The translations under genes and the position numbers were made by a program. This document shows positions 6,395 through 61,680 of a stretch of DNA of 64,000 nt, piece after piece. The notes beneath the pieces were generated by a model. It had not been told where the DNA came from. It searched no databases and worked only from the letters and a program-made list of their open reading frames with translations. This stretch comes from Nanobdellota archaeon (GTDB lineage: Archaea > Nanobdellota > Nanobdellia > Pacearchaeales > GW2011-AR1). The DNA is taken from NCBI GenBank assembly GCA_018817905.1, contig JAHISS010000087.1:985-64984 (forward strand), given 5' to 3'. Each line of letters starts with the position of its first letter. Within the stretch, counting starts at the first letter, position 1.

Positions 6395-7085
6395 CGTAAA
6401 CTACCGAGGGCTAAAGCCCTCAGCGTTTTAAGTTGAAAAATCAACAATTCTTTTTTGCATATCTTCGACAAGTTTAGGGGCTGAAGCCCTTTCCCAATGC
6501 TTGTCTTGACAGTCTTCAATGTAGTGCTTCATCGTCTCTTTGTTCACAGCACCGACGCTGCGGTAGAAATGTCCTCCACTCCAAAACTTATTTCCCCACA
6601 GCTTGTTTTTGAAAAGAGAGCTAAAGTGTCTTCGCATCTTGAAAGAACTGTAACCTTTGATTTGTCTGACAAGTTCTATCTCGCTGACAAATCTTACATT
6701 CGCAACAAACAAATGCAAATGATCTGGTCCAAAATTGTATGCAACCAAAACAACTTTCAGTTCATTTAACTTTTCCAGAATGCATGCAAAAGTTAATTCT
6801 GCAACTTGCTCATCTCGAAAAATCTGTCTTCGAAAAGCAGGAGTTAGCTGAATGTGAAAGTTGCTTTCACCGATAGCATTACTGCTCAGAATCAATTCCT
6901 TTTCCATTTTCACCTCCCGTAAGATTTAATTACGAGCAAGGCTACAGCTAACTGCTACGTGCAATGAGCTACAACCAGCTCATTGCTTATGTTCATTCAG
7001 ATTAGAAAAATATTACTGACTCGCTTTTGCGTCGTTGAAATTCAATCCGAGGGTTAAAACCTCACAGGGTTTCTTTCAACTGGCT
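6395..7085 (-). mobile_element. IS200/IS605-family insertion sequence (tnpA only); boundaries approximate
   Basis: Y1 transposase gene flanked by related subterminal hairpins CCGAGGGCTAAAGCCCTCA (6404-6422) and CCGAGGGTTAAAACCTCA (7047-7064). A perfect 10-bp stem hairpin GCAATGAGCT-acaacc-AGCTCATTGC (6961-6986) sits just upstream of tnpA. Confidence 0.6.
6428..6913 (-). CDS. tnpA: IS200/IS605-family Y1 (HUH) transposase TnpA
   Basis: 161 aa. FHIQLTPAFRRQIF, HUH motif DHLHLFV, IKGYSSFKMRRHF, and catalytic-Tyr region FWSGGHFYRSVG..ETMKHYIEDCQ. Confidence 0.85.
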   Translation of the reverse strand: MKMEKELILSSNAIGESNFHIQLTPAFRRQIFRDEQVAELTFACILEKLNELKVVLVAYNFGPDHLHLFVANVRFVSEIELVRQIKGYSSFKMRRHFSSLFKNKLWGNKFWSGGHFYRSVGAVNKETMKHYIEDCQDKHWERASAPKLVEDMQKRIVDFST

Positions 7086-30456: not shown

Positions 30457-31498
30457 AGTGGTCTTGGGATTTTCTGGTTCTAGTGGGGGCGTTGGTAAAG
30501 AAACTTTTGGGAAAGTTGGTTTAGTTAATCGGCCTTTAGAAGTTTCTTATTTTGTTAATAATCGATGCAATCTAAGTTGCAGACATTGTTATGTTGGATA
30601 TGAGCAGACTGATGGGGAATTGTCTGTTGGTGAATGGAGTGAAACGTTTGATAGGCTTATTGAGATGGGTGCTTTGACTTTTGGGAATGTTGGCAAGGAA
30701 CCTTTGCTTTCTTCGGATAAGACTATTGCTATTATGCAACACTTGGCTAAGAGGCGGGAGGAAATCCCTGCCTTGAGGTTTGGATTTGTCACGAATGGAA
30801 CTCTCCTTGACTGTAGAATGGTTGAAGATTTAGAAAGAATTTCTCCCGATTACATTGATGTAAGTTTAGATGGCGGCAGAAAAGTTCATGATTTTATTCG
30901 TGGAGATTATAATTATATTAGAACAGTTAGGAAACTTAGAGGTCTTCCTTCTGGTTTAACTGAGAAAGTTTTCTTAAGTTTTACTTTGATGAAGCCGAAT
31001 GTGGGAGAGTTTAGAGGGGTTGTTGGAGATATGAGTGCGTTGGGTTTAACAAAATTTCTTGTTTCTCCGTATGTTGCGACTCCTGGATCAAATGGAGAAT
31101 TGTTTATTAGTGATGAGGAAGTTGTCGATTTTTACGAACGAGTTGCTGATGGCTCTGAAATAAAGTTTGCAGACTTGCCCCAGATAGAAATAATCCTGAA
31201 ATCGGATTACGATTCTCAAAAAGCATTAATGGATAGATTAGTTGAACGGGGCGTAATTGATTTAGGAAATCTGTCAATAGATGAGTACGGAGTGATATTC
31301 AATAGGCACGTGCAAGGTGGTGGTTCAGAGGTTGTTGTTAATTACATGCCTTTTTCAGACACTCTCTCTAGGGCTGTTAGAATAAGCCATGATGGTTATG
31401 TTGGCGGTTGTTTAGAAATGTTTCACAAGGACTATCCTGAAAGAGCAAGGGCAAACTTGCGAGATAAGAAAATTGAAGAAATCCTCGGTAGAAATTAA
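30449..31498 (+). CDS. radical SAM enzyme (no SPASM/twitch Cys cluster visible)
   Basis: 349 aa. CNLSCRHCY (CX3CX2C), GKEPLL, VTNGTLL, VSLDGGRKVHDFIRG. The C-terminal half has a single Cys. GTG start. Confidence 0.85.
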   Translation: MTKVVLGFSGSSGGVGKETFGKVGLVNRPLEVSYFVNNRCNLSCRHCYVGYEQTDGELSVGEWSETFDRLIEMGALTFGNVGKEPLLSSDKTIAIMQHLAKRREEIPALRFGFVTNGTLLDCRMVEDLERISPDYIDVSLDGGRKVHDFIRGDYNYIRTVRKLRGLPSGLTEKVFLSFTLMKPNVGEFRGVVGDMSALGLTKFLVSPYVATPGSNGELFISDEEVVDFYERVADGSEIKFADLPQIEIILKSDYDSQKALMDRLVERGVIDLGNLSIDEYGVIFNRHVQGGGSEVVVNYMPFSDTLSRAVRISHDGYVGGCLEMFHKDYPERARANLRDKKIEEILGRN

Positions 31499-32226
31499 TC
31501 GTCCTGCTCAACTCTCGGCGCAAGAACGAAACTTAGGACGACGTCGCCGGTGTGGAAGTCCAGCCGCATTGGATGATTGTCTGAGAAACTCAGGGTCGAC
31601 TGGTTTGAAATCTTTGCTCCTTTGATGAACTTGCTTAGATATTCCAAGGAAAATCTTGCTGTGCTGTTTCCTGAATGGATTTCTGCTTCGTCGGTGGAGA
31701 ATTCTGCTCTCGCGCTGTTTAGGCTGTGGGCTTCAACAACAAACTTGTCTGGTTCGGCTATGAATGTGCAAGCGTCGCTTACGACTGAACAATCTTCGAT
31801 GACTTCAGTTAGGGTGTCTGAATTTATTTTGATAACTGAGTTGAACTCCCATTCTGGCAATGGCTTTTCTTCTGTGTCTGTGTCAATCAAAGCGAGAGAG
31901 AAATCCCGCTTGATTCTGTCTCTTATTGAAAGTTTCAACAGGTTGTCTTGTTTTTCCAAAGTAAGAGCTGCTCCAATCTTGCATCTTCTTAAAACTGCTT
32001 TCAAATTACTCAGATTGACTCCTAACTCCTCTTCTTCTTTGTCTATCTCAAAGTCTGAGAAGAGGGTATTTGGAATTTTAAAATAAATCATTGCGACATT
32101 TGCTGGGTCGATTGCAACAAGGCTCATTCCTTCTTTGTTTATTTTAATTCTCACTTCGGTAACTAACTCTGAAATGATTGTTACAATGTCTGAAAAAATC
32201 TTCGGGTTTTGAAGTGTGAGTTTCAT
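31495..32226 (-). CDS. pcn: DNA polymerase sliding clamp PCNA
   Basis: Track ORF trimmed to MKLTLQNPKIFSDIVTIISELVTEVRIKINKEGMSLVAIDPANVAM (ATG at 32226). 243 aa, typical PCNA. The stop overlaps the radical SAM stop by 4 nt (convergent genes). Confidence 0.9.
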   Translation of the reverse strand: MKLTLQNPKIFSDIVTIISELVTEVRIKINKEGMSLVAIDPANVAMIYFKIPNTLFSDFEIDKEEEELGVNLSNLKAVLRRCKIGAALTLEKQDNLLKLSIRDRIKRDFSLALIDTDTEEKPLPEWEFNSVIKINSDTLTEVIEDCSVVSDACTFIAEPDKFVVEAHSLNSARAEFSTDEAEIHSGNSTARFSLEYLSKFIKGAKISNQSTLSFSDNHPMRLDFHTGDVVLSFVLAPRVEQDD

Positions 32227-32296
32227 GGATTTTGATAAGATAAGAAGGTTAAAAGCTTTGTTGTAGTAAGAGAACAACAAACAATAAATAACCTCC

Positions 32297-33877
32297 TTGA
32301 TTCTCATTGGCGTGGAAGCAAAAGAAAAAAGAGTTCGGGCGATAACAAGTCTTTATTACTCGAATCAGAAGGTTCAGCAGGCGATTTTAGAGTTTGCAAA
32401 AGATAGAGAAGTTGTGCCGCAGTATTTTGAAGGTTTTGGAAAGCGGCCTGACATGCTTCAATACCAATCTGACATTGATGGTTTGGTTAGGAAAGGTGCG
32501 ACGTCTTTTCATGCTTCTGAAGAGTTATGGGAAAATCCCTTGAGCCTTAATTCAGAAATAACGCAGAAAGAAATGACGAAGCTGCGAAAGGGCTGGGATT
32601 TGCTGATTGATATTGACTCGCCTTTTCTTGACTGCTCGAAGATTGCAGCAGGCCTTCTTATCGAAGCTTTAGAACAACATGACGTGAAGAATTATGGCGT
32701 GAAATTTTCAGGAAGCAAAGGTTTCCATTTAATGATTTCTGGAAAAGCATTTCCAAAAGAGTTTGATGATAAAAAAACAAAAGAAATGTTTCCAGACTGG
32801 GCGCGGGTGGTTTGTTCTTATTTGATGGATTACATCAGAAAAGATTATAATGTTATGGCGAGCGAAATTCTTACGGATTTTGATGCGATAAAGCGGCGGA
32901 CAAAATTAACAAAAGAACAATTGCAAGAAGTCAGGTGCAATAAGTGCGGCGGTGTTGCGAGAAAAGGTTCAATTGCAGAGTTTTCCTGCCCTGTGTGCGG
33001 GATGAACGTTAAAAGAAAAAATATCAAAATAACAAAACGAAGATTGAAGTGTTTAAGCAACGACTGCGCTGGAATTTTGGAAATTGGCGATAGTGAGGAA
33101 TTTTATTATTGCGAGGATTGCAAAGACCAAGAAAACGAAAACCTGCAGTTGAATTCAAGCAAGCATCCTGAAAATTTTGAAAAGTTCGAAGGAGTCAGCG
33201 CTGAAAAAGTGGCTTCGCTGGATTTGGTTTTAGTTGCTCCGAGACATTTGTTCAGAATGCCTTACTCGCTTCATGAAAAAACCGCCTTGGCAAGCGTTGT
33301 TCTTTCAAAAAATGAAATTGAAAAATTCTCTCCGAAAGATGCAGATCCTTTGAAAGTTAAAGTCAGGAATTTTATGCCAGAGAATGTTGAAGGTGAGGCG
33401 AAAAAATTATTGAGCAAAGCACTTGATTGGGGAAGGGGAAGGGAAATTGTTCAGAAAGAAATTGAAGAAAAAAGATACAAGGGGAAGAGTTTTGAAAATG
33501 TTGAAATGAAAAACATCAGCGAGGACATGTTTCCGCCTGCGATAAAAAAACTTTTGAAAGGTTTAGAGGAAGGAAGGAAGCGGGGATTGTTTGTTTTGAT
33601 TACTTTTTTGAAAGCAGTTGGCAAGACGCCAGAAGAACTCAATAAAAGTATCAGAGAATGGAACGAAAAAAATGAGCCGCCGCTGAAAGAAGGTTATGTT
33701 AGGAGTCAGATTGAATGGCATCTGAAACAAACAAAGACAATCATCCCGCCAAATTACAGCAATGACGCGTTTTATCGAGACATTGGAATCTTAGACAAAA
33801 AACCGAAAACGAAAAATCCGCTGGTGGATGTTCGGAGGAGGATGTGGGGGCGAAGTGGTGATAATCTGAAAAAATAA
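32297..33877 (+). CDS. priS: DNA primase: PriS catalytic domain fused to a PriL/PriX-like helical C-terminal domain
   Basis: 526 aa. WDLLIDIDSP (DxD), FSGSKGFHLMIS, and a Zn-knuckle insert CNKCGG..CPVCG. The C-terminal FPPAIKKLLKGLEEGRKRGLFVLITFLKAVG resembles a primase large-subunit helical bundle. TTG start at 32297, or GTG at 32312. Confidence 0.8.
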   Translation: MILIGVEAKEKRVRAITSLYYSNQKVQQAILEFAKDREVVPQYFEGFGKRPDMLQYQSDIDGLVRKGATSFHASEELWENPLSLNSEITQKEMTKLRKGWDLLIDIDSPFLDCSKIAAGLLIEALEQHDVKNYGVKFSGSKGFHLMISGKAFPKEFDDKKTKEMFPDWARVVCSYLMDYIRKDYNVMASEILTDFDAIKRRTKLTKEQLQEVRCNKCGGVARKGSIAEFSCPVCGMNVKRKNIKITKRRLKCLSNDCAGILEIGDSEEFYYCEDCKDQENENLQLNSSKHPENFEKFEGVSAEKVASLDLVLVAPRHLFRMPYSLHEKTALASVVLSKNEIEKFSPKDADPLKVKVRNFMPENVEGEAKKLLSKALDWGRGREIVQKEIEEKRYKGKSFENVEMKNISEDMFPPAIKKLLKGLEEGRKRGLFVLITFLKAVGKTPEELNKSIREWNEKNEPPLKEGYVRSQIEWHLKQTKTIIPPNYSNDAFYRDIGILDKKPKTKNPLVDVRRRMWGRSGDNLKK

Positions 33878-45070: not shown

Positions 45071-46597
45071 ATGGCTGGCAAGATAAATCTAAATCCAGTA
45101 GTGCCGCCGCTTCCGCGGAATGAAGATAAAAAAAAGGTAGATGTGAGGTATATGCTGATTTCACCTTATGCTTCTGCGCACATTTACTGGAACAAGAAAG
45201 TAAATGAGTTGGTTTACGAACTTGAAGAGCCGATTCTGACAAAAGAAGAAGAGGAAGTGCTTGAAAGAGTTGAAAGCGCAATGCTTGAGTTGATTAATGT
45301 TAACGTTGCTATTGAAAAAACCCTTGAGGCAACAACGAATTATATAGATAAAACGGCGAGGTTACTGATTGATGAATTGAATATTGGGGTATCTTCTGAG
45401 AGTTATGATAAAATATTTTATTATCTGTTTAGGGATTTTATCGGACTGAATGAGATTGATCCATTGTTAAGGGATTATTTTATTGAAGATATAGAGTGCA
45501 ATGGAATTGATACGCCGTTATTTATCGTTCATAGGATGTATCGGAATCTTAGGACTAACCTTATTTTCAATGACTTTGACAAGCTTGCGAGTTTTATAGA
45601 AAAACTTGCGCAGCGCACAGGCAGGTATGTTTCTTACGCGCAGCCGCTGCTTGATGGAACACTGCCAGATGGTTCGAGAGTTAATGCTACATACACAAAA
45701 GATGTTTCTTCACGGGGACCTACTTTCACAATTAGAAAATTCACTAAAGTTCCATGGACTCCGACACAATTGATTTCGATGAACACGCTTTCCCCTGAAA
45801 TGCTGGCTTATTTCTGGATTTTGCTTGACAACAAAGCAAACATCTTGGTTACAGGAAGCACTTCTTCTGGAAAAACAACTTTGTTGAATGCGCTGGCTTT
45901 TTTTATCCCGCCTGAGGCGAGAGTTGTCAGTATTGAAGACACTCGAGAAATAAATTTACCGAGGGAAAACTGGCTGCCTTCGGTTGCAAGAACTTCTGTC
46001 GGCGTTGGAAAAATTGGCGAGGTTGATTTGTTTGAAATTTTGAAAAGCTCGTTCAGACAAAATCCAGATTATTTGATTGTGGGGGAAGTCAGAGGAAAAG
46101 AAGCGTTTGTTTTGTTTCAGGGAATGGCGAGCGGCCACACGTCCATCAGCACAATGCATTCTGACTCTGTGGACACTTTAATAAGGCGATTGCAGACTCC
46201 TCCAATAGATTTATCTCCAACCTTGGTAAATTCTTTAGATTGTGTTGTTGTTACAACGCACGCGGTAGCTAAAAAACAAGAAACCAGAAAAGTTAGAGAA
46301 ATCGTTGAGATTGTTAATGTTAACAAAGACGGAACAGCTTTGGTGAATACGCCGTTTAAGTGGGATCCTGCGAAAGATGTTTTTTACTCAAAAAAACAGA
46401 GCAAGGTTTTTGAAAAAATATCTACGCGAACTGGCACTCCTATTGAAAAATTGTATAAAGATTTAGCTACGAGGGCGAAATTGCTTTACGAGTTATACAA
46501 ACGAAAGATATTTGGATTTGATGAGGTTGGTTGGATTATTAATGAATTCCACAAAAACCCGGTTGGCGTTTTGAATAAATTTAATATTGCGGAGTGA
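45071..46597 (+). CDS. type II/IV secretion-family ATPase (ArlI/PilB-like)
   Basis: 508 aa. Walker A GSTSSGKTTLLNAL, EDTREI, Walker B/His box LIVGEVRGKEAFVLFQGMASGH. Confidence 0.9.
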   Translation: MAGKINLNPVVPPLPRNEDKKKVDVRYMLISPYASAHIYWNKKVNELVYELEEPILTKEEEEVLERVESAMLELINVNVAIEKTLEATTNYIDKTARLLIDELNIGVSSESYDKIFYYLFRDFIGLNEIDPLLRDYFIEDIECNGIDTPLFIVHRMYRNLRTNLIFNDFDKLASFIEKLAQRTGRYVSYAQPLLDGTLPDGSRVNATYTKDVSSRGPTFTIRKFTKVPWTPTQLISMNTLSPEMLAYFWILLDNKANILVTGSTSSGKTTLLNALAFFIPPEARVVSIEDTREINLPRENWLPSVARTSVGVGKIGEVDLFEILKSSFRQNPDYLIVGEVRGKEAFVLFQGMASGHTSISTMHSDSVDTLIRRLQTPPIDLSPTLVNSLDCVVVTTHAVAKKQETRKVREIVEIVNVNKDGTALVNTPFKWDPAKDVFYSKKQSKVFEKISTRTGTPIEKLYKDLATRAKLLYELYKRKIFGFDEVGWIINEFHKNPVGVLNKFNIAE

Positions 46598-46628: not shown

Positions 46629-46799
46629 ATGTTGATGAAAAAAGAGAACATCGTAGTTGTAGCTCAGCTTTTGACAGCTATTAAGGACAACATTGAAAAA
46701 ATAGAAGAAGCTGAACGGGAAAAAGATGCTGAGAAACTTTCTTCTGGAAGGCAGGAGATTTTGAGTTTTCAAAAGAAAATCGGGGAGCTTTTGAAATGA
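46629..46799 (+). CDS. small coiled-coil protein (56 aa)
   Basis: Own translation MLMKKENIVVVAQLLTAIKDNIEKIEEAEREKDAEKLSSGRQEILSFQKKIGELLK. Stop overlaps (ATGA) the platform-gene start. Confidence 0.4.
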   Translation: MLMKKENIVVVAQLLTAIKDNIEKIEEAEREKDAEKLSSGRQEILSFQKKIGELLK

Positions 46800-48106
46800 T
46801 TGGCGAACTGAAAAAAAACATTGAAACAGAAATCGGAATGCTTCGGGAGATTTCTAATTATCAGCGCAAACTGGAATCTGCGACAGAAGAAGAGAAAGTT
46901 CTTTTGGAAGGGACGGTTAAGTCGCTGGTGGCTGGAATGAAAATAATTAATGATTCAGTTCCGAAAATGCTGCAGGATGTTTCTATCTCAAAAAAATTGC
47001 CTTCTCTTGGTCGGGGGAAAAAAGAAAAACAGAGATTTGAAAAAATTAATTTTAAGCGGGCGGGGTCAGATGTTGAGGTTGTTCTTAAGTCGGGGGACAA
47101 AGAAAGGTTTTTGAAGGAACTTGACATAAGCGAGCAGTTTGTGAAGAAACTTCGGAAAAAACAATTTGAAAAACAGGAGACATATGGAGAGTTTAAAGCG
47201 TCGCGTGGATACCTGAAACTTGCGAACAGTTTTTTTCTAAAAAGTGCTGGGAAGTCAATAAGAAAGGGTTATTTCAAAAGTCTTTCAGGGAGTTTGAGGA
47301 AGGCAAACATTGATATTTTGTTTGAATCCTATGTTGCACTAATCTATCTTTCTGTTTTGTTGTCTTTTATTGCGTCAATTTTCATCACAGTTGTTTTATT
47401 ATTTTTCAGCACTATGCCCATCTGGCCTTTTTTTGAAGTTAATGATGGCGGTTATCTTTTAAGAATTGGGAAAATCTTTTGGATACCAGTCGCTGTTCCG
47501 CTGCTAACTTTTTTAGGGCTTTACATTTACCCGCTGACTGAAAAAAAGTCTATTGGAAACAAAATAAATCAAGAACTGCCTTTTGCAGTGATTCATATGA
47601 GCGCGATATCTGGCTCTGGAATTGAACCTTCGGAAATATTCAGGATAATTGGACTGAATAAAGAATACCCTTATCTGAGAAGAGAGATTAGGAAAGTTCT
47701 GAACCAGATTAATCTTTATGGTTATGATTTGACTACTGCGCTTAGCAATGCGGCTAAAAGTTCTCCGAGCGAAAAATTGTCAGAGTTGTTTTCTGGTTTG
47801 TCGACTACGATAACTTCTGGCGCTGACCTTTCCGAGTTTTTCGAAAAAAGGGCGGAAACATTGCTTCTGGGTTATAGGATAGAACGGGAGAAATATACTC
47901 AGCTTGTTGAAACTTTTCTTGATATTTATATTAGCGTTGTCATCGCAGCCCCAATGATATTTTTGCTGCTGCTTGTGATGATGGCTGTTTCTGGGATGGG
48001 CGTTGCCTTGAGCTCGTTTCAGATAAGCGTCTTAGCTGTCCTCATCATAGCTGTCTTAAACATTGTTTTCCTGTTGTTTTTACAAATGAAACAACCGAGT
48101 TACTAA
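46796..48106 (+). CDS. pilus/archaellum platform protein, first half (T2SSF domain; ArlJ/TadC-like)
   Basis: 436 aa. Cytoplasmic coiled coil, then TMs and LPFAVIHMSAISGSGIEPSEIFRII...YDLTTALSNAAKSSPSEKLSELFSGL. Confidence 0.8.
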   Translation: MIGELKKNIETEIGMLREISNYQRKLESATEEEKVLLEGTVKSLVAGMKIINDSVPKMLQDVSISKKLPSLGRGKKEKQRFEKINFKRAGSDVEVVLKSGDKERFLKELDISEQFVKKLRKKQFEKQETYGEFKASRGYLKLANSFFLKSAGKSIRKGYFKSLSGSLRKANIDILFESYVALIYLSVLLSFIASIFITVVLLFFSTMPIWPFFEVNDGGYLLRIGKIFWIPVAVPLLTFLGLYIYPLTEKKSIGNKINQELPFAVIHMSAISGSGIEPSEIFRIIGLNKEYPYLRREIRKVLNQINLYGYDLTTALSNAAKSSPSEKLSELFSGLSTTITSGADLSEFFEKRAETLLLGYRIEREKYTQLVETFLDIYISVVIAAPMIFLLLLVMMAVSGMGVALSSFQISVLAVLIIAVLNIVFLLFLQMKQPSY

Positions 48107-48480: not shown

Positions 48481-49341
48481 ATGGCGCTGAAAAAAATGCA
48501 CTGGTTTGGGATAATTGCAGGCGTAGTTATCGCGCTTTTTGATTTTGTATTCTTCTACAAAAATGAAAAGATGTTGTTTTTCCTTTTGGGAATCGGCATT
48601 GGAATTATAGCTTTGCCGTTTATTATCGGACTTAGCCTTGAGAACAAGAAAGAACACAAAGTTGATGATATGTTTTTAGAATTCACGAGGAATCTTGCAG
48701 AAAGCGTGGCAACTGGAACTCCGATAAGCAAAGGAGTAATCAACATGAGAAAAAAGAATTATGGGGTTTTGAATCCTCATGTCAATAAACTTGCAAACCA
48801 GATAGAGCTTGGAATTCCTGTTGACGAGGCGCTGCAAACTTTTGCGAAAGAGCTGGACAGCACTGTTGTTAAGCGGGCGATTGCCCTGATACGCGAAGCT
48901 GAAAAAGCTGGGGGAGATATTGACTATATTTTGGATTCAACAGCAAAGTCAATTTGTGAAGTTGAAAAGCTGAAGAAAGAAAGAAGGGCTGTGATTTATG
49001 GGCTGGTTGTTCAAGGTTATGTTATCTTTTTTATTTTTATCGGGATAATACTTATCATGGAATTCAAAATCATTCCGCTTACTGCTGGAGTCAGCACCTT
49101 CGGAGGTTTGGGCGGGGCAGGAGATTTGGGCTCTGGAGCAGCTGGAGTGGGAGAGATATCTCCTGAACAGTTTACTAAACCTTTTTTGTATCTTTTGCTG
49201 GCGCAGGGATTGTTTGTCGGGCTTGTAATCGGGAAGCTGACAGAAGGTTCGATAAAGAAAGGGCTGAAACATTCTTTTATCTTGATGATAACTGCTTTTC
49301 TTATTTCAACTGGGGCGCGGCTGTTTTTGAGTGGTGGGTGA
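48481..49341 (+). CDS. pilus/archaellum platform protein, second half (T2SSF domain; TadB/TadC-like)
   Basis: 286 aa. FLEFTRNLAESVATGTPISKGV...IELGIPVDEALQTFAKELDSTVVKRAIALIREAEKAGGD. Confidence 0.8.
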   Translation: MALKKMHWFGIIAGVVIALFDFVFFYKNEKMLFFLLGIGIGIIALPFIIGLSLENKKEHKVDDMFLEFTRNLAESVATGTPISKGVINMRKKNYGVLNPHVNKLANQIELGIPVDEALQTFAKELDSTVVKRAIALIREAEKAGGDIDYILDSTAKSICEVEKLKKERRAVIYGLVVQGYVIFFIFIGIILIMEFKIIPLTAGVSTFGGLGGAGDLGSGAAGVGEISPEQFTKPFLYLLLAQGLFVGLVIGKLTEGSIKKGLKHSFILMITAFLISTGARLFLSGG

Positions 49342-52150: not shown

Positions 52151-52906
52151 TTAGCTTCCCTTCTCCACAAAATAAAAAACCTCGTTTTCGCTTTTGAATG
52201 TTTTGAAAGGGAAGTTTAATTTTTTCAAAAGAACTTCAAACCAAATCCTCTTCGGAAAATTCATCGGCTTGCCGGATAACTTTCTTGTTGAAAAGCTGAC
52301 TATCAATCTGGTGCAGGGAACTGTTGTGAGAATTTTTCTGGCGTGTTTTTTTTCTATTACGTCGAGAACTTTGAAAAGAAGGCACAGGTCTGCACGGGGA
52401 AGATTTTTTTTAAGATTCCTTAAATCGCAAATGAAAGTTTCCCCTTTTATTTTGTTTTTTTTGAAGAATTTTTTAACAAGGGAGAGTTCGTCTTGCTTTA
52501 TGTCTGAGGCGTGATATTTTATTTTTGGATTTGCTAAGGCAAGGGGGTTTAATCCGCAGCCCAGGTCTAAGATTGAAGCGGGTTTGAGAGAGGCTACGAT
52601 TTTTTTAAGTTCAGGATAAAACTCTAATCTTTCTGCTGTTGAAGAATGTGTCTTGAGAATCTTTTGGAAATCCCCTTCTTTGAAAAGTTTTTCTCTGTTT
52701 TTCAAACTTTTTTGAAATCTTCCGGTGAGGATTCTCAATTCAGCTCTTAAATCTTTGACGATTATTTTTTTTTGTTTTTGTGAAAGGTTGGCTAATTCTA
52801 TTCTGTATTTGTTAAGATAATTATTTAGAGCGGTTTTCACAACTGAATCGACCAAGCCGGACAGTTCTTTTTTTTGTTTTATTGTTTTGATTAGTTCATT
52901 TTTCAT
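52151..52906 (-). CDS. Arm/Rmt (FmrO)-family 16S rRNA (guanine1405-N7)-methyltransferase homologue
   Basis: 251 aa. LKTHSSTAERL, ILDLGCGLNPLAL, YHASDI, LLFKVLDVIE, IVSFSTRKLSGKPMNFPKRIWFE, NEVFYFVEK. These align by eye with the conserved blocks of ArmA/RmtB (HxSTxER, LDxxCGxNPLA, FKxLPxLE, SFPxxSLxGxxKGM..WFE). Confidence 0.75.
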   Translation of the reverse strand: MKNELIKTIKQKKELSGLVDSVVKTALNNYLNKYRIELANLSQKQKKIIVKDLRAELRILTGRFQKSLKNREKLFKEGDFQKILKTHSSTAERLEFYPELKKIVASLKPASILDLGCGLNPLALANPKIKYHASDIKQDELSLVKKFFKKNKIKGETFICDLRNLKKNLPRADLCLLFKVLDVIEKKHARKILTTVPCTRLIVSFSTRKLSGKPMNFPKRIWFEVLLKKLNFPFKTFKSENEVFYFVEKGS

Positions 52907-52955
52907 TTTATTTGGTGTGGGAAAATGTATATAAATGTAGGCGGCATTGATTGTT

Positions 52956-53684
52956 ATGAGAAGCTGCGGATTGTTTGGAAAAAAAGGCGTAAGCCATGTT
53001 GAAATTATTCTGGCATTTGTGATTTTTATCGCTGCTGTGGGATTTGCGCTGTATTTTTTTAATCCTGGAGATAGTGATAGGTTGGTGGGAACTTCTTTGA
53101 CTTATGCGTTTCGTGAAATAAAACAGAACGCAAGTGTGGGCGTTGAGACATTTTCAGTTGTGATTGACGATGTTGCGGTTGTTACTGGGGGAAGTGATAC
53201 GATTGCGATGAATTTCCCAGGTGTTGAAGGAAAAACAAGAGTTGAAACTTATGACGGAGAGGTTTTGAACTCTTCACATGTAGCGGACATTGTTAATGTT
53301 AACACTGATAATTGGAACGGGATAGATTTTCTTTTTGTAAAGTTTGGTGAAGAATTTGTTGAAACTGCTGGTTTGTCTGGAACTGAGAATGCGACTTATT
53401 ATGAAATTGGTTCTTCAAATTTAAAAGAAGTGATTTCTGAAAAAAGGATTTTAAATCTCAAGGATGCTTATGATGCAGATTATTATTCCTTGCGAGGGGA
53501 GGATAATTTCAATCTTCCTGACAGGGTGAATTTTGGTTTTTCTCTGGTTTTTGATGATGGTTCTATCGAGGCAGAAAGAGAAATTCCGGCAAGTCTTGAA
53601 GTTTTTTCAGACACAGAAAGAGTTGAGGTTCTTAGAGATGGAGGAGAGATTGTGTTTGCTGATTTGATGGTTAAACTGTGGTAA
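52956..53684 (+). CDS. pilin-like protein (class III signal peptide)
   Basis: ATG at 52956. MRSCGLFGKKGVSHVEIILAFVIFIAAVGFALYFF, with KKG|VSHVE and Glu at +5. Confidence 0.7.
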   Translation: MRSCGLFGKKGVSHVEIILAFVIFIAAVGFALYFFNPGDSDRLVGTSLTYAFREIKQNASVGVETFSVVIDDVAVVTGGSDTIAMNFPGVEGKTRVETYDGEVLNSSHVADIVNVNTDNWNGIDFLFVKFGEEFVETAGLSGTENATYYEIGSSNLKEVISEKRILNLKDAYDADYYSLRGEDNFNLPDRVNFGFSLVFDDGSIEAEREIPASLEVFSDTERVEVLRDGGEIVFADLMVKLW

Positions 53685-53688
53685 TGAA

Positions 53689-54114
53689 ATGATGAACAAA
53701 AAAGGTTTTATGCGCGTGGTTGAAGCGACAATTGCTATTTTGATTATCTTCGGAGTTTTGTTAGTGATTGTTCCAAAAAAAACAAGTAGTGAAGAGAAAG
53801 ATTTTAGTGAGATTTTACCAGGACTTTTGGACGAGTTGGCGCAAAATCTGACATTGCGCGAAGAGCTAATCTCTGGAGCTAAAGAAGATGGTTTTCTTGA
53901 GGGAGAGATAGAAACTTTGCTTGGGCAGAGGATTAAAAATCCTTCTTTAAGTTATTCTGTTGAGATTTGTGAGCTGGATGAAATTTGTTATCTTGAGCCG
54001 TATCCTGCTGATGTTGAAGAAGACATTTATGCGGCAGAGAGAGTTGTAAGTGCGAGTATAAAGAACTTGGATTTCTCTCCGAAGAAAATAAAAATATTCT
54101 TATGGCAGAATTGA
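53689..54114 (+). CDS. pilin-like protein (class III signal peptide)
   Basis: MMNKKGFMRVVEATIAILIIFGVLLVIV, with the KKG|FMRVVEA motif. Confidence 0.7.
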   Translation: MMNKKGFMRVVEATIAILIIFGVLLVIVPKKTSSEEKDFSEILPGLLDELAQNLTLREELISGAKEDGFLEGEIETLLGQRIKNPSLSYSVEICELDEICYLEPYPADVEEDIYAAERVVSASIKNLDFSPKKIKIFLWQN

Positions 54115-54338
54115 TTTGATAGCATGCGCTATTGAAATATTGCCAGCAATAAACAACCCAGTAGATATCTCTCTGCGTGTCATTGAATTGTTTTGTAATA
54201 TTATTTGAAGAAATTTGGTGGCGCGGGTTGGGGAAATGAATCGTGCTATCTTGTGCTGTAACAAACGAGTTAATGGTTGTAACCTACAACGAGATTGATT
54301 TTGACAATCTTTATAAAGTTGCGTTCTTTAGAAAAATC

Positions 54339-55904
54339 ATGAAGAGGATATTGAGTTGTATTTTACTTGTAAGTGTTTTGTTTTGCATTCTTACGTTGGG
54401 AATTGTTTCTGCTGTAATAACTTGCGTTAATGGAGAAGACAGAATGTTTAGAATAAGCAGTGTTACAAATGCTCATGCGGAAAAATGGGTTCAAACTAAT
54501 TATGGTGAAGAGATTTGTTACGAGGATTATTTCCAAGGATATGGGAGTGGCGTGAGGGGCTGCGCTGGAGGAAATAAAATCTTGGGAATTTCTGGAGATA
54601 CAAATGCTCATGTTGAAATTCCTACCCAAAGTAATTATGAATCTGTTTGTTATGGGGACTTGACTTGTAAAGCAGTTCAAGGACAATGCAATGATACTGA
54701 CTTAGGAGTTGGAACAGATTACAGTGTGATTGTTTCGTTGGCTGATGAAGAAAACAGCCATGTTTCACTTGCTTATGTTTATCCTTACAGAATTTGTTGT
54801 AAGGGTCCGCATTCTCCGATTTGTAATTATGACGGTGTTTGTGATTATTTATCTCGCGGGGAAACAGCGCAAAATTGTCCTGACGATTGTGTTTGCGGGA
54901 ACGGACAGATTGACGCGGGAGAAGTTTGCGATATTGGAGACGACCCCGAAGATCCAAGTGATGATGTATTCACAATTCCAGGGTTTGATTGTACTGATCT
55001 CGATTACAGCAGTGGACCACTTTATTGTGCTGAAGGATGCATGAGTTATGATGTAAGTTCGTGTGAGGTAGAATGTGATGATGGAATTCTTAGTCCTGGG
55101 GAAACATGTGAACCTTCTCTTGATCCTGATGGAGCGGATTGTAATGATGCTGAAGGTTATCCTGGAACGCGGCAATGTAGTAATGTAACTTGCAATTGGG
55201 TTTGTGATACAGGTTTGTTTTGCGGAGATACAATTTTCACTTCTCCCCCAGAAGAATGCGAAATTGACGATGAAGAAAGTTGCGAAGAGCATGATTTTGA
55301 AAGCGGCCTAGAAGTAACTTGTGACGAAGATACGTGCAAGTGGGACACAAGCCAATGCGTTGGAAAATTAACTTTTTGTGAAAAACATGAACCATTTACT
55401 TACGAACATCCAGACGAAAGTGGAAATTATTTTTCTCCGATGAGGTGCGTTGAATACAATCTTGTTTATCCTGGTTCTAGTAAAGCAGAAGAAAGGGAAG
55501 AACTTTGTCTTGGCGACTGTGTCGCTGGCGCTTCTGTTCCTGTGAACAATGGCTATGCTGGGACAAATCTTTTTAGCTCTGGATGTGCTTGGGATTCTGA
55601 CGGAACAGATGGCGGGCAGTGTTACTTTTATTTTGAAAGAAACGAAGGAGATAGATGTAGGACAGATTTTGTTTCTGAAGCAGACTGCGAGCCAGATGAT
55701 TCATTTAGAGAAGTGACAATTAACGCGAGCGCTGTCGGCGGAGGAACTTGGACTTGTGATGCTGGCTGTGGTGAAGATACTTGCACTTCGCAAATCTATT
55801 GTCCAACAGTTATACGTCTCCCTTTCTTTGGTTGGGTGGCTTTTGTTTCTGGAATTTTCTTAATTGGAATTATTTATATGTTTAATTTTGCAAGAAAAAG
55901 ATGA
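54339..55904 (+). CDS. Cys-rich cell-surface protein with C-terminal TM anchor
   Basis: Track ORF trimmed to MKRILSCILLVSVLFCILTLGIVSA (signal peptide). Repeated SxxTNAHxExxxQxNY motif, CVCGNGQIDAGEVCD module, more than 50 Cys, C-terminal TM. Confidence 0.75.
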   Translation: MKRILSCILLVSVLFCILTLGIVSAVITCVNGEDRMFRISSVTNAHAEKWVQTNYGEEICYEDYFQGYGSGVRGCAGGNKILGISGDTNAHVEIPTQSNYESVCYGDLTCKAVQGQCNDTDLGVGTDYSVIVSLADEENSHVSLAYVYPYRICCKGPHSPICNYDGVCDYLSRGETAQNCPDDCVCGNGQIDAGEVCDIGDDPEDPSDDVFTIPGFDCTDLDYSSGPLYCAEGCMSYDVSSCEVECDDGILSPGETCEPSLDPDGADCNDAEGYPGTRQCSNVTCNWVCDTGLFCGDTIFTSPPEECEIDDEESCEEHDFESGLEVTCDEDTCKWDTSQCVGKLTFCEKHEPFTYEHPDESGNYFSPMRCVEYNLVYPGSSKAEEREELCLGDCVAGASVPVNNGYAGTNLFSSGCAWDSDGTDGGQCYFYFERNEGDRCRTDFVSEADCEPDDSFREVTINASAVGGGTWTCDAGCGEDTCTSQIYCPTVIRLPFFGWVAFVSGIFLIGIIYMFNFARKR

Positions 55905-58656: not shown

Positions 58657-59295
58657 ATGTTCAAGTTATTGAAAAAATTTTCAGCGAGGATTTTCGGTGG
58701 GCTGTTTAGAAAGAAAGATAATTTAAAAATTGGTTTTTACGGTCCGCCAAATGCTGGGAAGACGAGTTTGGCCAACAAAATTTGCAAGGACTGGACAGGT
58801 GAAGATATTGGAACTGTCAGCAATGTGCCTCATGAAACAAGAAATGTTCAAATCAAAGAAAAAGTCGAAATAAAATACAAGGGCAAAACGCTGATGTTTA
58901 AATTGATCGATACGCCGGGAATTGCCACGAAAATAGATTATGAAAATTTCATGAAGTTTGGCTTGAAAAAGAAAAAAGCAAAGAAGAGGGCCAAGGAAGC
59001 GACTCAAGGAATTATTGAAGCGATACAATGGCTTGACGACATGGATGCAGTGATTATTGTTCTTGACTCGACGCAAAACCCTTATTCTCAAGTGAACATT
59101 ACAATCATTGGGAATTTGGTTGCAAGGAAAATTCCTATCCTGATTGCCGCAAATAAGATAGATTTAAAAAAATCAGATGTTAAAAAAATAGAATCTGCAT
59201 TTCCTGAGTATGAAGTTGTCGGGATTTCAGCTAAAGAAGGGAAAAATATAGATGAATTTTATGAGTCATTGTTTAAACTTTCGAAAAAAATCTAA
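58657..59295 (+). CDS. small GTP-binding protein
   Basis: 212 aa. G1 GPPNAGKTS, G3 DTPG, G4 NKID, G5 SAK. Confidence 0.8.
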   Translation: MFKLLKKFSARIFGGLFRKKDNLKIGFYGPPNAGKTSLANKICKDWTGEDIGTVSNVPHETRNVQIKEKVEIKYKGKTLMFKLIDTPGIATKIDYENFMKFGLKKKKAKKRAKEATQGIIEAIQWLDDMDAVIIVLDSTQNPYSQVNITIIGNLVARKIPILIAANKIDLKKSDVKKIESAFPEYEVVGISAKEGKNIDEFYESLFKLSKKI

Positions 59296-59297
59296 AG

Positions 59298-59705
59298 ATG
59301 GAAAATAAAATGAAAAAAGGGGTGAAGAGAATAAAAGGATTGAGTTTGCAGGTGATACCGTTTGCAGAAGTTCAGGGCCTGACAATTGCTCAAAGAGTTA
59401 AGAAAATTTTGAGTTTAGTTTTAGGAAATAAGATTGTTATTTTGCATGGAAGGTTAAGGGCGGAGGAAGAGGCGAGATTAATCGAAGATACAATGGCTTT
59501 AGTTGACCATGTTAAGAATTTTAAGGGAATTGAGCTGGCTGTCATTGAACCTGACTTGAGGAATAGAAGTATTTTTATTAAAATGAAATATGGGATTGCG
59601 AAACGGCTTGTCGGAGATAACAGCGCTTTGACAGTTATTGGGCCTGCGACAGTAATTAAGGAAATCAAAAGGGACCCGAAAAGATTAGAACTGATGCTGG
59701 GGTGA
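59298..59705 (+). CDS. conserved archaeal protein (DUF2073-like) coupled to the GTPase
   Basis: 135 aa with a 2-nt gap after the GTPase. The family assignment is from memory of the GTPase/DUF2073/Zn-ribbon gene triad and is not verified. Confidence 0.45.
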   Translation: MENKMKKGVKRIKGLSLQVIPFAEVQGLTIAQRVKKILSLVLGNKIVILHGRLRAEEEARLIEDTMALVDHVKNFKGIELAVIEPDLRNRSIFIKMKYGIAKRLVGDNSALTVIGPATVIKEIKRDPKRLELMLG

Positions 59706-59778
59706 TTTGTGATTTTTTGGATAGGGATTTATTTCTTAATAACTAAATCTTTATTAATTGATTTAACTTCTGAAATGT

Positions 59779-60168
59779 ATGCCTTACAAATGTGTCCACT
59801 GCTCGAAACTTTACGAAGATGGGAGTGAGCAGGTGCTGAAAGGTTGTGACGGCTGCGGACGGAAGTTTTTCTTTTATATTCGGAAAGACCAAGTTGATAA
59901 AATAAGGGAGAATGAAGAGCTTGACGTTGAACTTGATGCTGTGGAAAAAAAACAGATAGAACAAGACGTGCGGGAGATTTCTGGTTTTGAAGACGAAGAA
60001 GTGCCGGTATTCCTTGATTTTGAAAGCGTGAAAGTGATTCGGCCTGGAAAGTATGCTGTGGATTTAGGGAATTTATTTGCTACGAACAAACCAAGAGTTT
60101 ACAAACTGGAAGACGGGAAGTATATCATTGATCTTTCGACAATTAAAATCAGTGAAAGACAAACTTAA
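59779..60168 (+). CDS. Zn-ribbon protein (DUF2072-like)
   Basis: MPYKCVHCSKLYEDGSEQVLKGCDGCGRKFFFYI is a CxxC..CxxC ribbon, followed by an acidic linker. Confidence 0.55.
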   Translation: MPYKCVHCSKLYEDGSEQVLKGCDGCGRKFFFYIRKDQVDKIRENEELDVELDAVEKKQIEQDVREISGFEDEEVPVFLDFESVKVIRPGKYAVDLGNLFATNKPRVYKLEDGKYIIDLSTIKISERQT

Positions 60169-60192
60169 AAGCTTTGAATTCTTTTAAAAGTT

Positions 60193-61458
60193 ATGAACGC
60201 AAAGAGGGTATTGGAAACATTGGATTTTTCTGTTGGCAAGAATGAATTTAATGAGTTAGAAAAAGAAACAAAAAGTTTTTTGAACTTGTTGAAGAAACAG
60301 GTTTCTAAGAAAAAAGTTAATTGTGAAGTTTTTCTCGGGGGAAGTTTTGCAAAAGGAACGCTGGCAAAATCAGAGAGCTATGATGCAGATATTTTTGTGA
60401 GATTTGGCCGTAAGTGCGGAGATTTATCAGATTATTTGGGGAAAATTTTGAAAAACCTTGTGAAAAGAACGGGGATGAAAATTGAGAGATTGCATGGAAG
60501 CAGAGACTATTTTAGGATTAGAAAAAATGAAAAATTAATCTTTGAACTTATTCCTGTCTTGAAAATAAAAAAAATTGTTGAAGCGATGAATGTCATGGAC
60601 TTGAGTTATTTTCATGTGAATTATGTGCGGAGAAATCTGAAAGGTCGACTGAGAAAAGAGGTGAGTTTTGCAAAGAAATTCTGCGAGGCGCAGGGCGTTT
60701 ACGGGGCTGAATCTTACATCAACGGTTTTTCAGGATACGGGCTGGAATGTTTGATAATTCATTTCAAGAGCTTTGAAAAAATGCTAAAAGAATTGATAAA
60801 GATTAAAGACAAAAAACTTGTGATTGATACGAAAAAGTTTTACAAGAAGAAAGGTGATGTTTTTATCGAGTTGAATGAGTCCAAATTGCAGTCGCCAATA
60901 ATTTTAATTGATCCGACGTGGAAAGAAAGGAATGTTTTGGCTTCTTTGAATTGGGAAACGTTTGTGAAGTTTCAAAGCGCTGCAAGAAATTTTTTGAAAA
61001 AACCTTCTGAAAAGTTTTTTTACAAGAAAGAAATTAATGTTTCCCAATTGAAGAAGAAAAATGGTGAGTTTTTGCATCTTGTTTTGGAAACAGACAAACA
61101 AGAAGGAGATATTGCTGGGACAAAGCTAAGAAAGTTTTCTAATTTTTTAATCAGAGAGATTGAGAAATATTTCTACGTTCTTGGGAAAGAATTTGTTTAT
61201 CGCGGAGAAGGAAAAAAGGCAGAACTTTATTTGACTTTGAAATCTCGCGGCGAAGTTTTGAAAAAAGGGCCACCAGTAACGATGAAGAAAGATGCTGTTT
61301 GCTTTAGGAAAAAGAATGAGAAAACAGCAGTTAGGGGTGGGGTTTTATATTGCAAGGTAAAGACTGATTTTTCTGGGAAGGAGTTTTTGAAGAAATTTGT
61401 TAGGAAGAATGAAAAGAAAATTAAGGAGATGGGTGTTGTTGACGTGAGGATAGAGTAA
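60193..61458 (+). CDS. cca: archaeal class I CCA-adding tRNA nucleotidyltransferase
   Basis: 421 aa. VFLGGSFAKGTLAKSESYDADIFVRF, MDLSYFHVNYV, GVYGAESYINGFSGYGLECLIIHF. Confidence 0.85.
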   Translation: MNAKRVLETLDFSVGKNEFNELEKETKSFLNLLKKQVSKKKVNCEVFLGGSFAKGTLAKSESYDADIFVRFGRKCGDLSDYLGKILKNLVKRTGMKIERLHGSRDYFRIRKNEKLIFELIPVLKIKKIVEAMNVMDLSYFHVNYVRRNLKGRLRKEVSFAKKFCEAQGVYGAESYINGFSGYGLECLIIHFKSFEKMLKELIKIKDKKLVIDTKKFYKKKGDVFIELNESKLQSPIILIDPTWKERNVLASLNWETFVKFQSAARNFLKKPSEKFFYKKEINVSQLKKKNGEFLHLVLETDKQEGDIAGTKLRKFSNFLIREIEKYFYVLGKEFVYRGEGKKAELYLTLKSRGEVLKKGPPVTMKKDAVCFRKKNEKTAVRGGVLYCKVKTDFSGKEFLKKFVRKNEKKIKEMGVVDVRIE

Positions 61459-61680
61459 TTCGAAGAGTTTTTCTCTTGTTATGTTTGCTTGTTTGATTAT
61501 GCTGTTTAAAGTTCCTTTTGCTATCTCTCTGTGGAGTGGAACAGGAACAGTAGTCTTTCCCTTTTCTTCGCCTATTTTATTCAGAATTGCATGGCTTCCT
61601 GTTGTTCTTACGTGTTGAAATCCAATCTTAGCCAATGCTTTTATCAGTTCCTTGCCTGAGAGAATTGGCAATTTTGGCAT
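61345..61680 (-). CDS. hicA: HicA-family toxin (C-terminally extended ORF overlapping the cca 3' end)
   Basis: MPKLPILSGKELIKALAKIGFQHVRTTGSHAILNK...VPVPLHREIAKGTLNSIIKQANI is the HicA signature. The ORF continues 114 nt into convergent cca. Confidence 0.8.
   Translation of the reverse strand: MPKLPILSGKELIKALAKIGFQHVRTTGSHAILNKIGEEKGKTTVPVPLHREIAKGTLNSIIKQANITREKLFELLYPHVNNTHLLNFLFILPNKFLQKLLPRKISLYLAI

Follow-up and report, generated by a model that had tools for sequence, protein, structure and literature searches.

Why does a relative of the ribosomal RNA (rRNA) methyltransferases that make pathogens resistant to aminoglycosides lie antisense within the pilus locus of an archaeon? The question is raised by a stretch of 64,000 nucleotides (nt) of Nanobdellota archaeon DNA (assembly GCA_018817905.1, contig JAHISS010000087.1, positions 985 to 64,984), called here the window, whose minus strand carries an intact, ATG-started open reading frame (ORF) for a protein of 251 residues. 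The protein is an Arm/Rmt (FmrO) family homologue, and its gene is chromosomal, native and vertically inherited. Our preferred reading, held with modest confidence, is that it is an intrinsic guanine-N7 methyltransferase of the small-subunit rRNA, RmtC-like, which would be expressed with the neighbouring pilin operon but be functionally separate from it.

An FmrO-family protein and its published relatives

A Pfam scan of the 251-residue protein returned PF07091 (FmrO) at 61.1 bits, with an E-value (E) of 1.5e-16 and a gathering cut-off of 27. FmrO is the sole family that passes its cut-off; the runners-up, generic methyltransferase domains, score at most 23 bits and stay under theirs. The NCBIfam model Rmt_gen (NF000466) can be aligned from one end to the other, its positions 3-253 pairing with residues 5-247 of the protein, with E 1.2e-32. 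Significant phmmer matches in the PDB are confined to methyltransferases that form N7-methylguanosine at position 1405 of 16S rRNA (m7G1405): RmtB (1.3e-15), RmtF (7e-14) and ArmA (4e-13), followed more weakly by Sgm (8e-8) and RmtC (1e-5). With a profile of 40 homologues as the query, the E-values against the m7G1405 methyltransferases of the PDB improve to 8e-25 through 1e-17.

An earlier note on this DNA had claimed Arm/Rmt homology by eye, and had named the want of an FmrO match in a HMMER search as the finding that would speak against it; the family was matched, and the ORF is exactly where the note had placed it (52151-52906, minus strand, 251 residues). All five motif blocks quoted there occur in the translation. 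The correspondence of one of them was less complete than presented: the proline of the family block FKxLPxLE is an invariant aspartate, D182, in the archaeal clade. The identical protein has a public copy, KJ600_04635 of the Nanoarchaeota metagenome-assembled genome (MAG) GCA_018815165.1, annotated just as 'hypothetical protein'.

The novelty of such a gene in an archaeon had been overstated. The Arm family's 'first archaeal ortholog', NEQ545 of Nanoarchaeum equitans, was described as a member 'in the evolutionary sense' with perfect catalytic motifs, a diverged N-terminal domain and an unclear function (Husain et al. 2010, PMC2896518). An Arm homologue was then counted among 15 genes common to two nanoarchaea, a Nanoarchaeota signature for which no homologue could be confidently identified in any further archaeal genome sequenced up to that time (Podar et al. 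2013, PMC3655853). Our protein is a further member of this known archaeal FmrO clade. Three points are new relative to the literature searched: the size of the clade, an antisense position frozen in place with a TATA box in common, and a co-varying switch from K-Y..H to E-L..R in the residues that face helix 45 (h45) of the small subunit.

Fold and functional residues

An AlphaFold2 model built from 40 homologues has a mean predicted local distance difference test score (pLDDT) of 93.7 and a predicted template modelling score (pTM) of 0.89. It shows helices 2-9, 20-33, 43-61 (N1), 71-106 (N2), and then an alternating beta/alpha core of Rossmann type. The predicted architecture is the two-domain one of the FmrO/Arm-Rmt-Kgm family, with a helical N-terminal domain made up of N1 and N2 (residues 1 to about 106), followed by a C-terminal Rossmann domain (about 107-251). 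When the model was compared with the PDB by Foldseek, m7G1405 methyltransferases filled the top 16 places; full-length superpositions were obtained with Sgm (E 2e-16, template modelling (TM) score 0.83), RmtF (TM 0.81) and RmtB (TM 0.78). The next class, TehB-type and other small-molecule methyltransferases, begins at E 3e-8, which leaves a gap of more than six orders of magnitude.

To place the functional residues, the products of the plasmid genes rmtB, armA, rmtF and rmtC were aligned with our protein and four archaeal homologues. Residue roles follow the structure of RmtC on the 30S subunit (Srinivas et al. 2023, PMC10288597), and those of Sgm R108, the arginine of the HxSTxER motif, and Sgm D156, the acidic residue of motif II that is D160 in RmtC, come from PMC2896518. 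The S-adenosylmethionine (SAM) site of RmtC, H105/S107/T108/E110/R111, corresponds to H87/S89/T90/E92/R93, and the SAM-ribose contact D160 to D135. In 40 homologues H87, S89, T90, E92, R93, D114, G118 and D135 are invariant, and G116 is nearly so. The aromatic residue between SAM and G1405, Y60 in RmtC, is F64 (F or Y family-wide), and the universal lysine that contacts N7, K204, is K179, present in 144 of 146 sequences. A further G1405 contact, K236, becomes R208, with K or R in most sequences.

Towards helix 44 (h44), the distorting loop S239-G240-R241 of RmtC is S211-G212-K213, and the pocket residue M245 is M215, invariant among close homologues. For docking through N1, RmtC uses R39, K43 and K47, matched here by K33, K47 and K51, and R50, matched by the invariant R54. 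Across 146 cluster representatives most RmtC-equivalent functional positions are invariant or nearly so, and the residues that bind SAM, position G1405 and distort h44 are conserved. Among the further substitutions, RmtC T207 (Pro in RmtB, ArmA and RmtF) is the invariant D182, and RmtC N248 is P218.

A large archaeal clade near the resistance enzymes

With RmtB, ArmA and RmtF our protein shares 28-31% identity (70-75 bits), and with RmtC it scores 45 bits; identity to the four enzymes spans 24-31%. Other archaeal members reach 95-111 bits with the same four, at 30-33% identity and 82-99% coverage. Among themselves, RmtB, ArmA, RmtF and RmtC score 89-130 bits, save the RmtB-RmtF pair at 185-193. 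Since the archaeal scores are comparable to those between the enzymes, the archaeal family falls inside the sequence radius of the validated one.

The 120 best homologues listed have 50-67% identity and all contain PF07091; those with names are Nanoarchaeota, Pacearchaeota or 'archaeon' MAGs. A second homologue search likewise found PF07091 in all 120 matches listed. When one genome per GTDB species was scanned, 317 sites were found to encode a relative, and the titles of the best 80 of these 317 read Nanoarchaeota, Woese-, Pace- or Parvarchaeota or plain archaeon, apart from one contig labelled Methanosarcinales. An exhaustive profile search gave 1,627 clusters at 50% identity with E <= 1e-3, and 389 with E <= 1e-30.

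Besides the sub-clade of the pilus locus there is a second, larger one, with a median length of about 277 residues, which includes K-Y..H forms and comes from Nanoarchaeota and Woesearchaeota MAGs. Many of its members have been labelled '16S rRNA (guanine(1405)-N(7))-methyltransferase' by the pipeline of the Joint Genome Institute (JGI). In a neighbour-joining tree that covered archaeal sequences and, from bacteria, four Rmt/ArmA sequences only, these four form the outgroup to the archaeal ones. Judged by their sequences, the archaeal proteins form a large FmrO clade that appears to be DPANN-specific, the host archaea being labelled Nanoarchaeota, Pacearchaeota or Woesearchaeota.

An inherited gene

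According to the earlier note, the gene was either an acquired resistance or self-protection gene or an endogenous rRNA-modifying enzyme. Only the second part of this alternative is favoured by the composition of the gene, the 317 sites, the conserved synteny and a Mantel test. The G+C content of the gene is 0.345, against 0.383 ± 0.029 for 28 genes of the window, and that of its third codon positions (GC3) is 0.365 against 0.349 ± 0.048; both are native, and the compositional check that the note had proposed gave no sign of foreign origin. The Mantel correlation between methyltransferase distances and those of four neighbouring genes is 0.45-0.60, with 0 of 500 permutations as high.

A recent acquisition of the kind known from pathogens and antibiotic producers would draw on the membership of the protein in a family of known resistance determinants, and on an IS200-type transposase elsewhere in the window (6428-6913). 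No mobile elements flank the methyltransferase gene, however, and no aminoglycoside biosynthesis genes are found nearby. In about 75 loci, with protein identity as low as 42%, the gene has the same position, neighbours and promoter; the divergence of the gene parallels that of its neighbours; and the identity to plasmid-borne Rmt/ArmA is at best 29-31%. We consider such an origin very improbable, recent horizontal transfer being rejected on native composition, synteny and the Mantel test.

Antisense position and a shared TATA box

As the earlier note had described, the gene runs antisense in a plus-strand array of pilus and surface genes: around it lie genes for T2SSE, for T2SSF (two of them) and for PKD and beta-helix proteins, along with five ORFs whose N-termini are of pilin type. 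The antisense position inside a type-IV-pilus-like locus is kept in about 75 of 79 related loci. On the divergent 5' side, 74 of about 79 loci encode at position -1, on the strand opposite to the methyltransferase, a pilin-like protein of about 240 residues, and 72 have one of about 140 residues at -2; further out there often follow a Cys-rich protein of about 580 residues and then a PKD-domain protein of about 900.

On the convergent 3' side, T2SSF occupies +1 in 61 of 70 loci, and a second T2SSF, the T2SSE ATPase and a pilin-like gene come next; pilus assembly genes at +1, +2 and +3 are conserved in 58-70 loci. As the usual order puts T2SSF at +1, the 879-residue beta-helix protein next to the methyltransferase in the window looks like a lineage-specific insertion. 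The start of the first pilin-like gene is M4 of its longest ORF, in agreement with the public gene call (242 residues), and a Pfam scan of this protein gave no match.

The 49 bp between the two divergent genes hold one central TATA box (Table 1), whose centre is separated from the start codon of the methyltransferase by about 26 nt and from that of the pilin by about 25 nt. Among 70 related loci, 22 have their start codons exactly 50 bp apart, and in 41 the spacing falls within 45-52 bp. Counted from the methyltransferase ATG, the TATA consensus across loci, ATTTATATA, spans -30 to -22. In about 60 of 76 loci the first base of a TATA-like motif falls within -30 to -27, any other position being used by at most 4. 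A GGGAAAA element resembling a B recognition element (BRE) is conserved on the pilin-sense side.

Archaeal TATA boxes lie about 26 nt upstream of the transcription start. With a TATA box 25-26 nt from both ATGs, two leaderless transcripts from one shared box are therefore predicted, and we infer that 52907-52955 is a putative shared bidirectional promoter. Sharing of the box is the likely reason why the antisense position in the pilus locus is frozen. Kept in about 60 species, the shared central TATA box would offer a clear-cut case, found in nature, of an archaeal promoter that works in both directions, and would show how promoter sharing can freeze an unrelated gene in an operon-like locus.

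The embedding in about 75 of 79 loci and the common promoter region could also be taken to indicate a pilus-related function, for example methylation of pilins or of another product of the locus. The shared TATA box is enough to explain the resistance to rearrangement, so that a functional tie to pili is not needed. Such a tie is further disfavoured because distant archaeal homologues sit in unrelated housekeeping contexts, beside topoisomerase I, endonuclease III, archease and RtcB, CarS, thymidylate kinase or CTP synthase. Conservation of the N-terminal domain for RNA docking and of the residues that bind guanine also speaks against it. We give a pilus-related function hardly any credence.

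Other genes of these loci deserve mention. The Cys-rich protein of the window (553 residues, 54243-55904, plus strand, no Pfam match) has a hydrophobic C-terminal segment and repeated T/DTNAHxE motifs; its homologues stand at position -3, downstream of the two pilin-like genes, in about 36 loci, and it may be a pilus-associated adhesin. Archease and the RNA ligase RtcB follow the two pilin genes, at positions -3/-4, in a subset of loci (L066, L063 and others). In the distant-homologue locus L088:8840-12198 the genes that come after the methyltransferase are those for endonuclease III, archease and RtcB. Both arrangements are a hint that the methyltransferase was once linked to genes for RNA repair and tRNA ligation. 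Another distant-homologue locus, L093:8775-12807 on a 178-kb metagenomic contig, features, close to the methyltransferase homologue, a giant ORF whose called product of 8,631 residues has no Pfam match.

Proposed function and its alternatives

For an old, inherited gene in hundreds of tiny symbiotic archaea, modification of the own ribosome is most likely. By analogy with the resistance enzymes, the assembled small subunit is the most likely substrate, and G1405, or else a guanine close to it in the decoding centre, the most likely target; from this analogy we infer the rRNA target, its exact nucleotide and the physiological role. RmtC docks on the 30S surface formed by h24, h27, h44 and h45 (PMC10288597), and the helical N-terminal domain of the archaeal protein may dock in the same way on h24/h27/h44/h45 of the assembled small subunit. 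The loop with S211-G212-K213, together with M215, would distort the top of h44, and the target guanine (G1405 in E. coli numbering) would flip between F64 and K179, with R208 alongside. N7 methylation would then proceed from SAM, held by H87/S89/T90/E92/R93, D114-G116-G118 and D135. The modification would act on the own ribosome as an intrinsic trait; in the sub-clade of the pilus locus, the enzyme would be made from a leaderless mRNA that starts from the TATA box common to the divergent pilin operon. Were G1405 the target, a side effect would be insensitivity to 4,6-disubstituted deoxystreptamine aminoglycosides.

Several points weigh against this reading. The score with NF000466, 113.2 bits, is below the equivalog cut-off of 250 for Rmt enzymes, which is explained by how the NCBIfam model was trained. 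The h44 loop, equivalent to RmtC 237-246, is two residues shorter. The shared promoter is predicted from sequence. A literature search for a functional test of any archaeal member found none. The remaining points concern the h45 face of the protein and the rRNA of N. equitans.

K20, Y21 and H54 of RmtC all touch h45 at G1515/G1516. Two of them, Y21 and H54, are 'near universally' conserved, and resistance is lost or nearly lost on substitution of any of the three (PMC10288597). In our protein their counterparts are E14, L15 and R58, and of the N1 residues by which RmtC contacts h45 R50 alone is retained, as R54, residues 1-44 having been mapped by MAFFT and fold match only, since HMMER left the region unaligned. 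Among 371 archaeal homologues the triad reads E-[L/F]..R in 254 and K-Y..H, the type of the resistance enzymes, in 74; intermediates are E-[L/F]..H (15-21), and K-Y..R is practically absent, all these counts being inflated by the relatedness of the sequences. The pattern reads as the coherent, co-varying rebuilding of a single contact face. As a rule the h45 loop of archaea is a GGAA tetraloop, the same as in bacteria (PMC7897474), and there is therefore no obvious rRNA change for the enzyme to adapt to; an archaeal U1516 as the cause of the switch was dropped on these grounds, most archaea having the GGAA tetraloop. A 16S rRNA motif search over 92 related loci (about 1 Mb) found no rRNA, and Rfam and tRNA scans of the 64-kb window returned no RNA genes.

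The h44 and h45 regions of N. equitans 16S rRNA were analysed with matrix-assisted laser desorption/ionization mass spectrometry (MALDI-MS), which shows UC(Am)(Am)Gp (nt 1406-1410) among the fragments left by RNase T1 (Seistrup et al. 2017, PMC5389701); that study does not discuss NEQ545. As m7G1405 blocks cleavage by RNase T1 (Savic et al. 2009, PMC2760815), a cut 3' of G1405 implies that this guanine is at least partly not N7-methylated in N. equitans, the one cultured relative. The same data contain no fragments with nt 1402, and G1401 is apparently base-modified (PMC5389701), which leaves room for a neighbouring target.

These observations lend themselves to retargeting: with the same fold and chemistry, the enzyme could act on another decoding-centre guanine such as G1401, or on another RNA, its h45 face being rebuilt accordingly. 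The E-[L/F]..R triad of 254 of the 371 homologues, the invariant D182 at a site held by P or T in the resistance enzymes, the shorter h44 loop and the N. equitans fragments (a T1 cut after G1405, displaced nt 1402 fragments and a seemingly modified G1401) all point this way. Yet all contacts to the flipped G1405 and most of those to h44 1405-1409/1492-1495 are kept (F64, K179, R208, K213 and M215), and the h45 tetraloop is the bacterial one. The N. equitans data, besides, concern a far more diverged homologue and are compatible with partial m7G1405. We see retargeting as possible but unlikely.

N. equitans and N. acidilobi are without RsmA/KsgA/Dim1, an otherwise almost universal enzyme (PMC5389701, PMC7897474). 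The protein might thus be a late small-subunit biogenesis or quality-control factor that replaces KsgA/Dim1, with methylation secondary. The surface on which RmtC docks, formed by h24, h27, h44 and h45, is the same platform that KsgA/Dim1 binds, the Arm homologue is one of the 15 nanoarchaeal signature genes (PMC3655853), and the gene is retained in very many reduced genomes. The idea is conjectural, however: the authors of the N. equitans study proposed an sRNA-guided substitute (PMC5389701), and Rmt enzymes require the mature 30S subunit, not a precursor (PMC10288597). A phmmer search with E. coli RsmA gave no match in six-frame ORFs of the window and the related loci, which are a sliver of each genome. 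We judge the replacement of KsgA/Dim1, with methylation secondary, to be quite improbable.

A combined version has the protein as a repurposed late-subunit factor with a rebuilt h45 face, which either takes over the KsgA/Dim1 checkpoint or methylates, for example, G1401. It would link the loss of KsgA, the T1-cleaved G1405 and the modification near nt 1401-1402 in N. equitans; we rate it as improbable.

Either outcome would matter. Should the intrinsic methyltransferase make m7G1405, a whole archaeal radiation would natively bear the modification that gives pathogens pan-resistance to 4,6-aminoglycosides. It would be the first housekeeping use of the FmrO family, and would constitute a very large environmental reservoir, some members of which are as near to RmtC/ArmA as those are to each other. 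Should it not, the switch of the h45 face and the N. equitans mass spectra would point to a retargeted resistance scaffold, with a bearing on how specificity is encoded.

Other features of the window

Table 1 Positions of the methyltransferase gene, its promoter region and other annotated features of the window.
Feature	Position	Strand	Remarks
secY	3573-4970
IS200-like Y1 transposase	6428-6913	minus	between secY and the end of the ribosomal operon, about 7.4 kb
Ribosomal-protein operon	7.9-22.8 kb	minus	L3, L4, L2, L22, S3, S4e, L5, L6, S5
PCNA	31495-32307		convergent with the 526-residue primase ORF
DNA primase ORF, 526 residues	32297-33877	plus	small and large subunit Pfam families in one ORF
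Pilin-like ORFs upstream of T2SSE	43204, 43664, 44504	plus	pilin-type N-termini, weak Pilin_N match
T2SSE ATPase	45071-46597	plus	Pfam match; convergent with the methyltransferase
T2SSF, first	46796-48106	plus	Pfam match; convergent with the methyltransferase
Membrane ORF, 123 residues	48108-48479	plus	between the two T2SSF genes
T2SSF, second	48481-49341	plus	Pfam match; convergent with the methyltransferase
Secreted beta-helix/NosD/CARDB protein, 879 residues	49489-52128	plus	Pfam match; between T2SSF and the methyltransferase 3' end
FmrO/Arm-Rmt-family SAM-dependent rRNA methyltransferase (homologue), coding sequence	52151-52906	minus	ATG-started intact ORF, 251 residues
Divergent intergenic region	52907-52955		49 bp, one central, near-palindromic TATA box
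TATA box	52928-52935		TATATAAA on plus, TTTATATA on minus
Pilin-like gene 1	52956-53684	plus	first of the divergent operon; 242 residues, N-terminus KKG followed by VSHVEIILAFVIFIAAVGF
Pilin-like gene 2	53689-54114	plus	141 residues, N-terminus NKKG followed by FMRVVEATIAILIIFGVLL

The ribosomal-protein operon, which the earlier note had described as heavily remodelled and set beside the methyltransferase, has no evident link with it: the two are 30 kb apart, and the ten ORFs scanned gave ordinary ribosomal-protein matches. Apart from the IS200-like Y1 transposase no mobile-element signature was seen in the window, and this transposase may be the source of the perceived remodelling.

The two primase subunit families found in one 526-residue ORF suggest a fused PriS-PriL primase, resembling that of N. 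equitans. Together with PCNA and an archaeal ribosomal-protein operon that includes S4e, this primase makes the remainder of the window consistent with an archaeon of Nanoarchaeota type. Downstream of the pilus and surface genes, at 58657-61680, are a small GTPase (MMR_HSR1), OapB and OapC homologues and a CCA-adding enzyme; within the same segment a HicA toxin-like ORF on the opposite strand overlaps the end of the CCA-adding enzyme gene. The cumulative GC skew has its minimum at about 21-22 kb and rises steadily after it, where the minus-strand ribosomal operon gives way to genes mostly on the plus strand; the turn could reflect coding-strand bias or a replication landmark.

Comparison with known systems

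The closest described relative in kind is NEQ545, likewise an archaeal chromosomal FmrO/Arm protein with conserved catalytic motifs from a reduced-genome symbiont. By its published description NEQ545 lacks one N-terminal helix, whereas our protein is modelled with a complete N1+N2. With RmtB, ArmA, RmtF and RmtC (EC 2.1.1.179) it shares the Pfam family, the two-domain fold and the residues for SAM, G1405 and h44; those enzymes are plasmid- or transposon-borne, whereas the archaeal gene is chromosomal, ancient and non-mobile.

In being chromosomal and non-mobile, it resembles instead the genes for Sgm, KgmB and GrmA of actinomycete producers, and Sgm is the best structural match. The sequence match to Sgm (8e-8) is nevertheless weaker than those to RmtB and ArmA, and the archaeal locus is without an aminoglycoside biosynthetic cluster; we know of no antibiotic production by the archaeal host. 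KsgA/RsmA/Dim1, finally, is also a Rossmann methyltransferase that acts on the late small subunit in the adjoining region of h45 and the top of h44. It belongs to PF00398, targets A1518/A1519 by another chemistry and has no sequence relationship to the archaeal protein.

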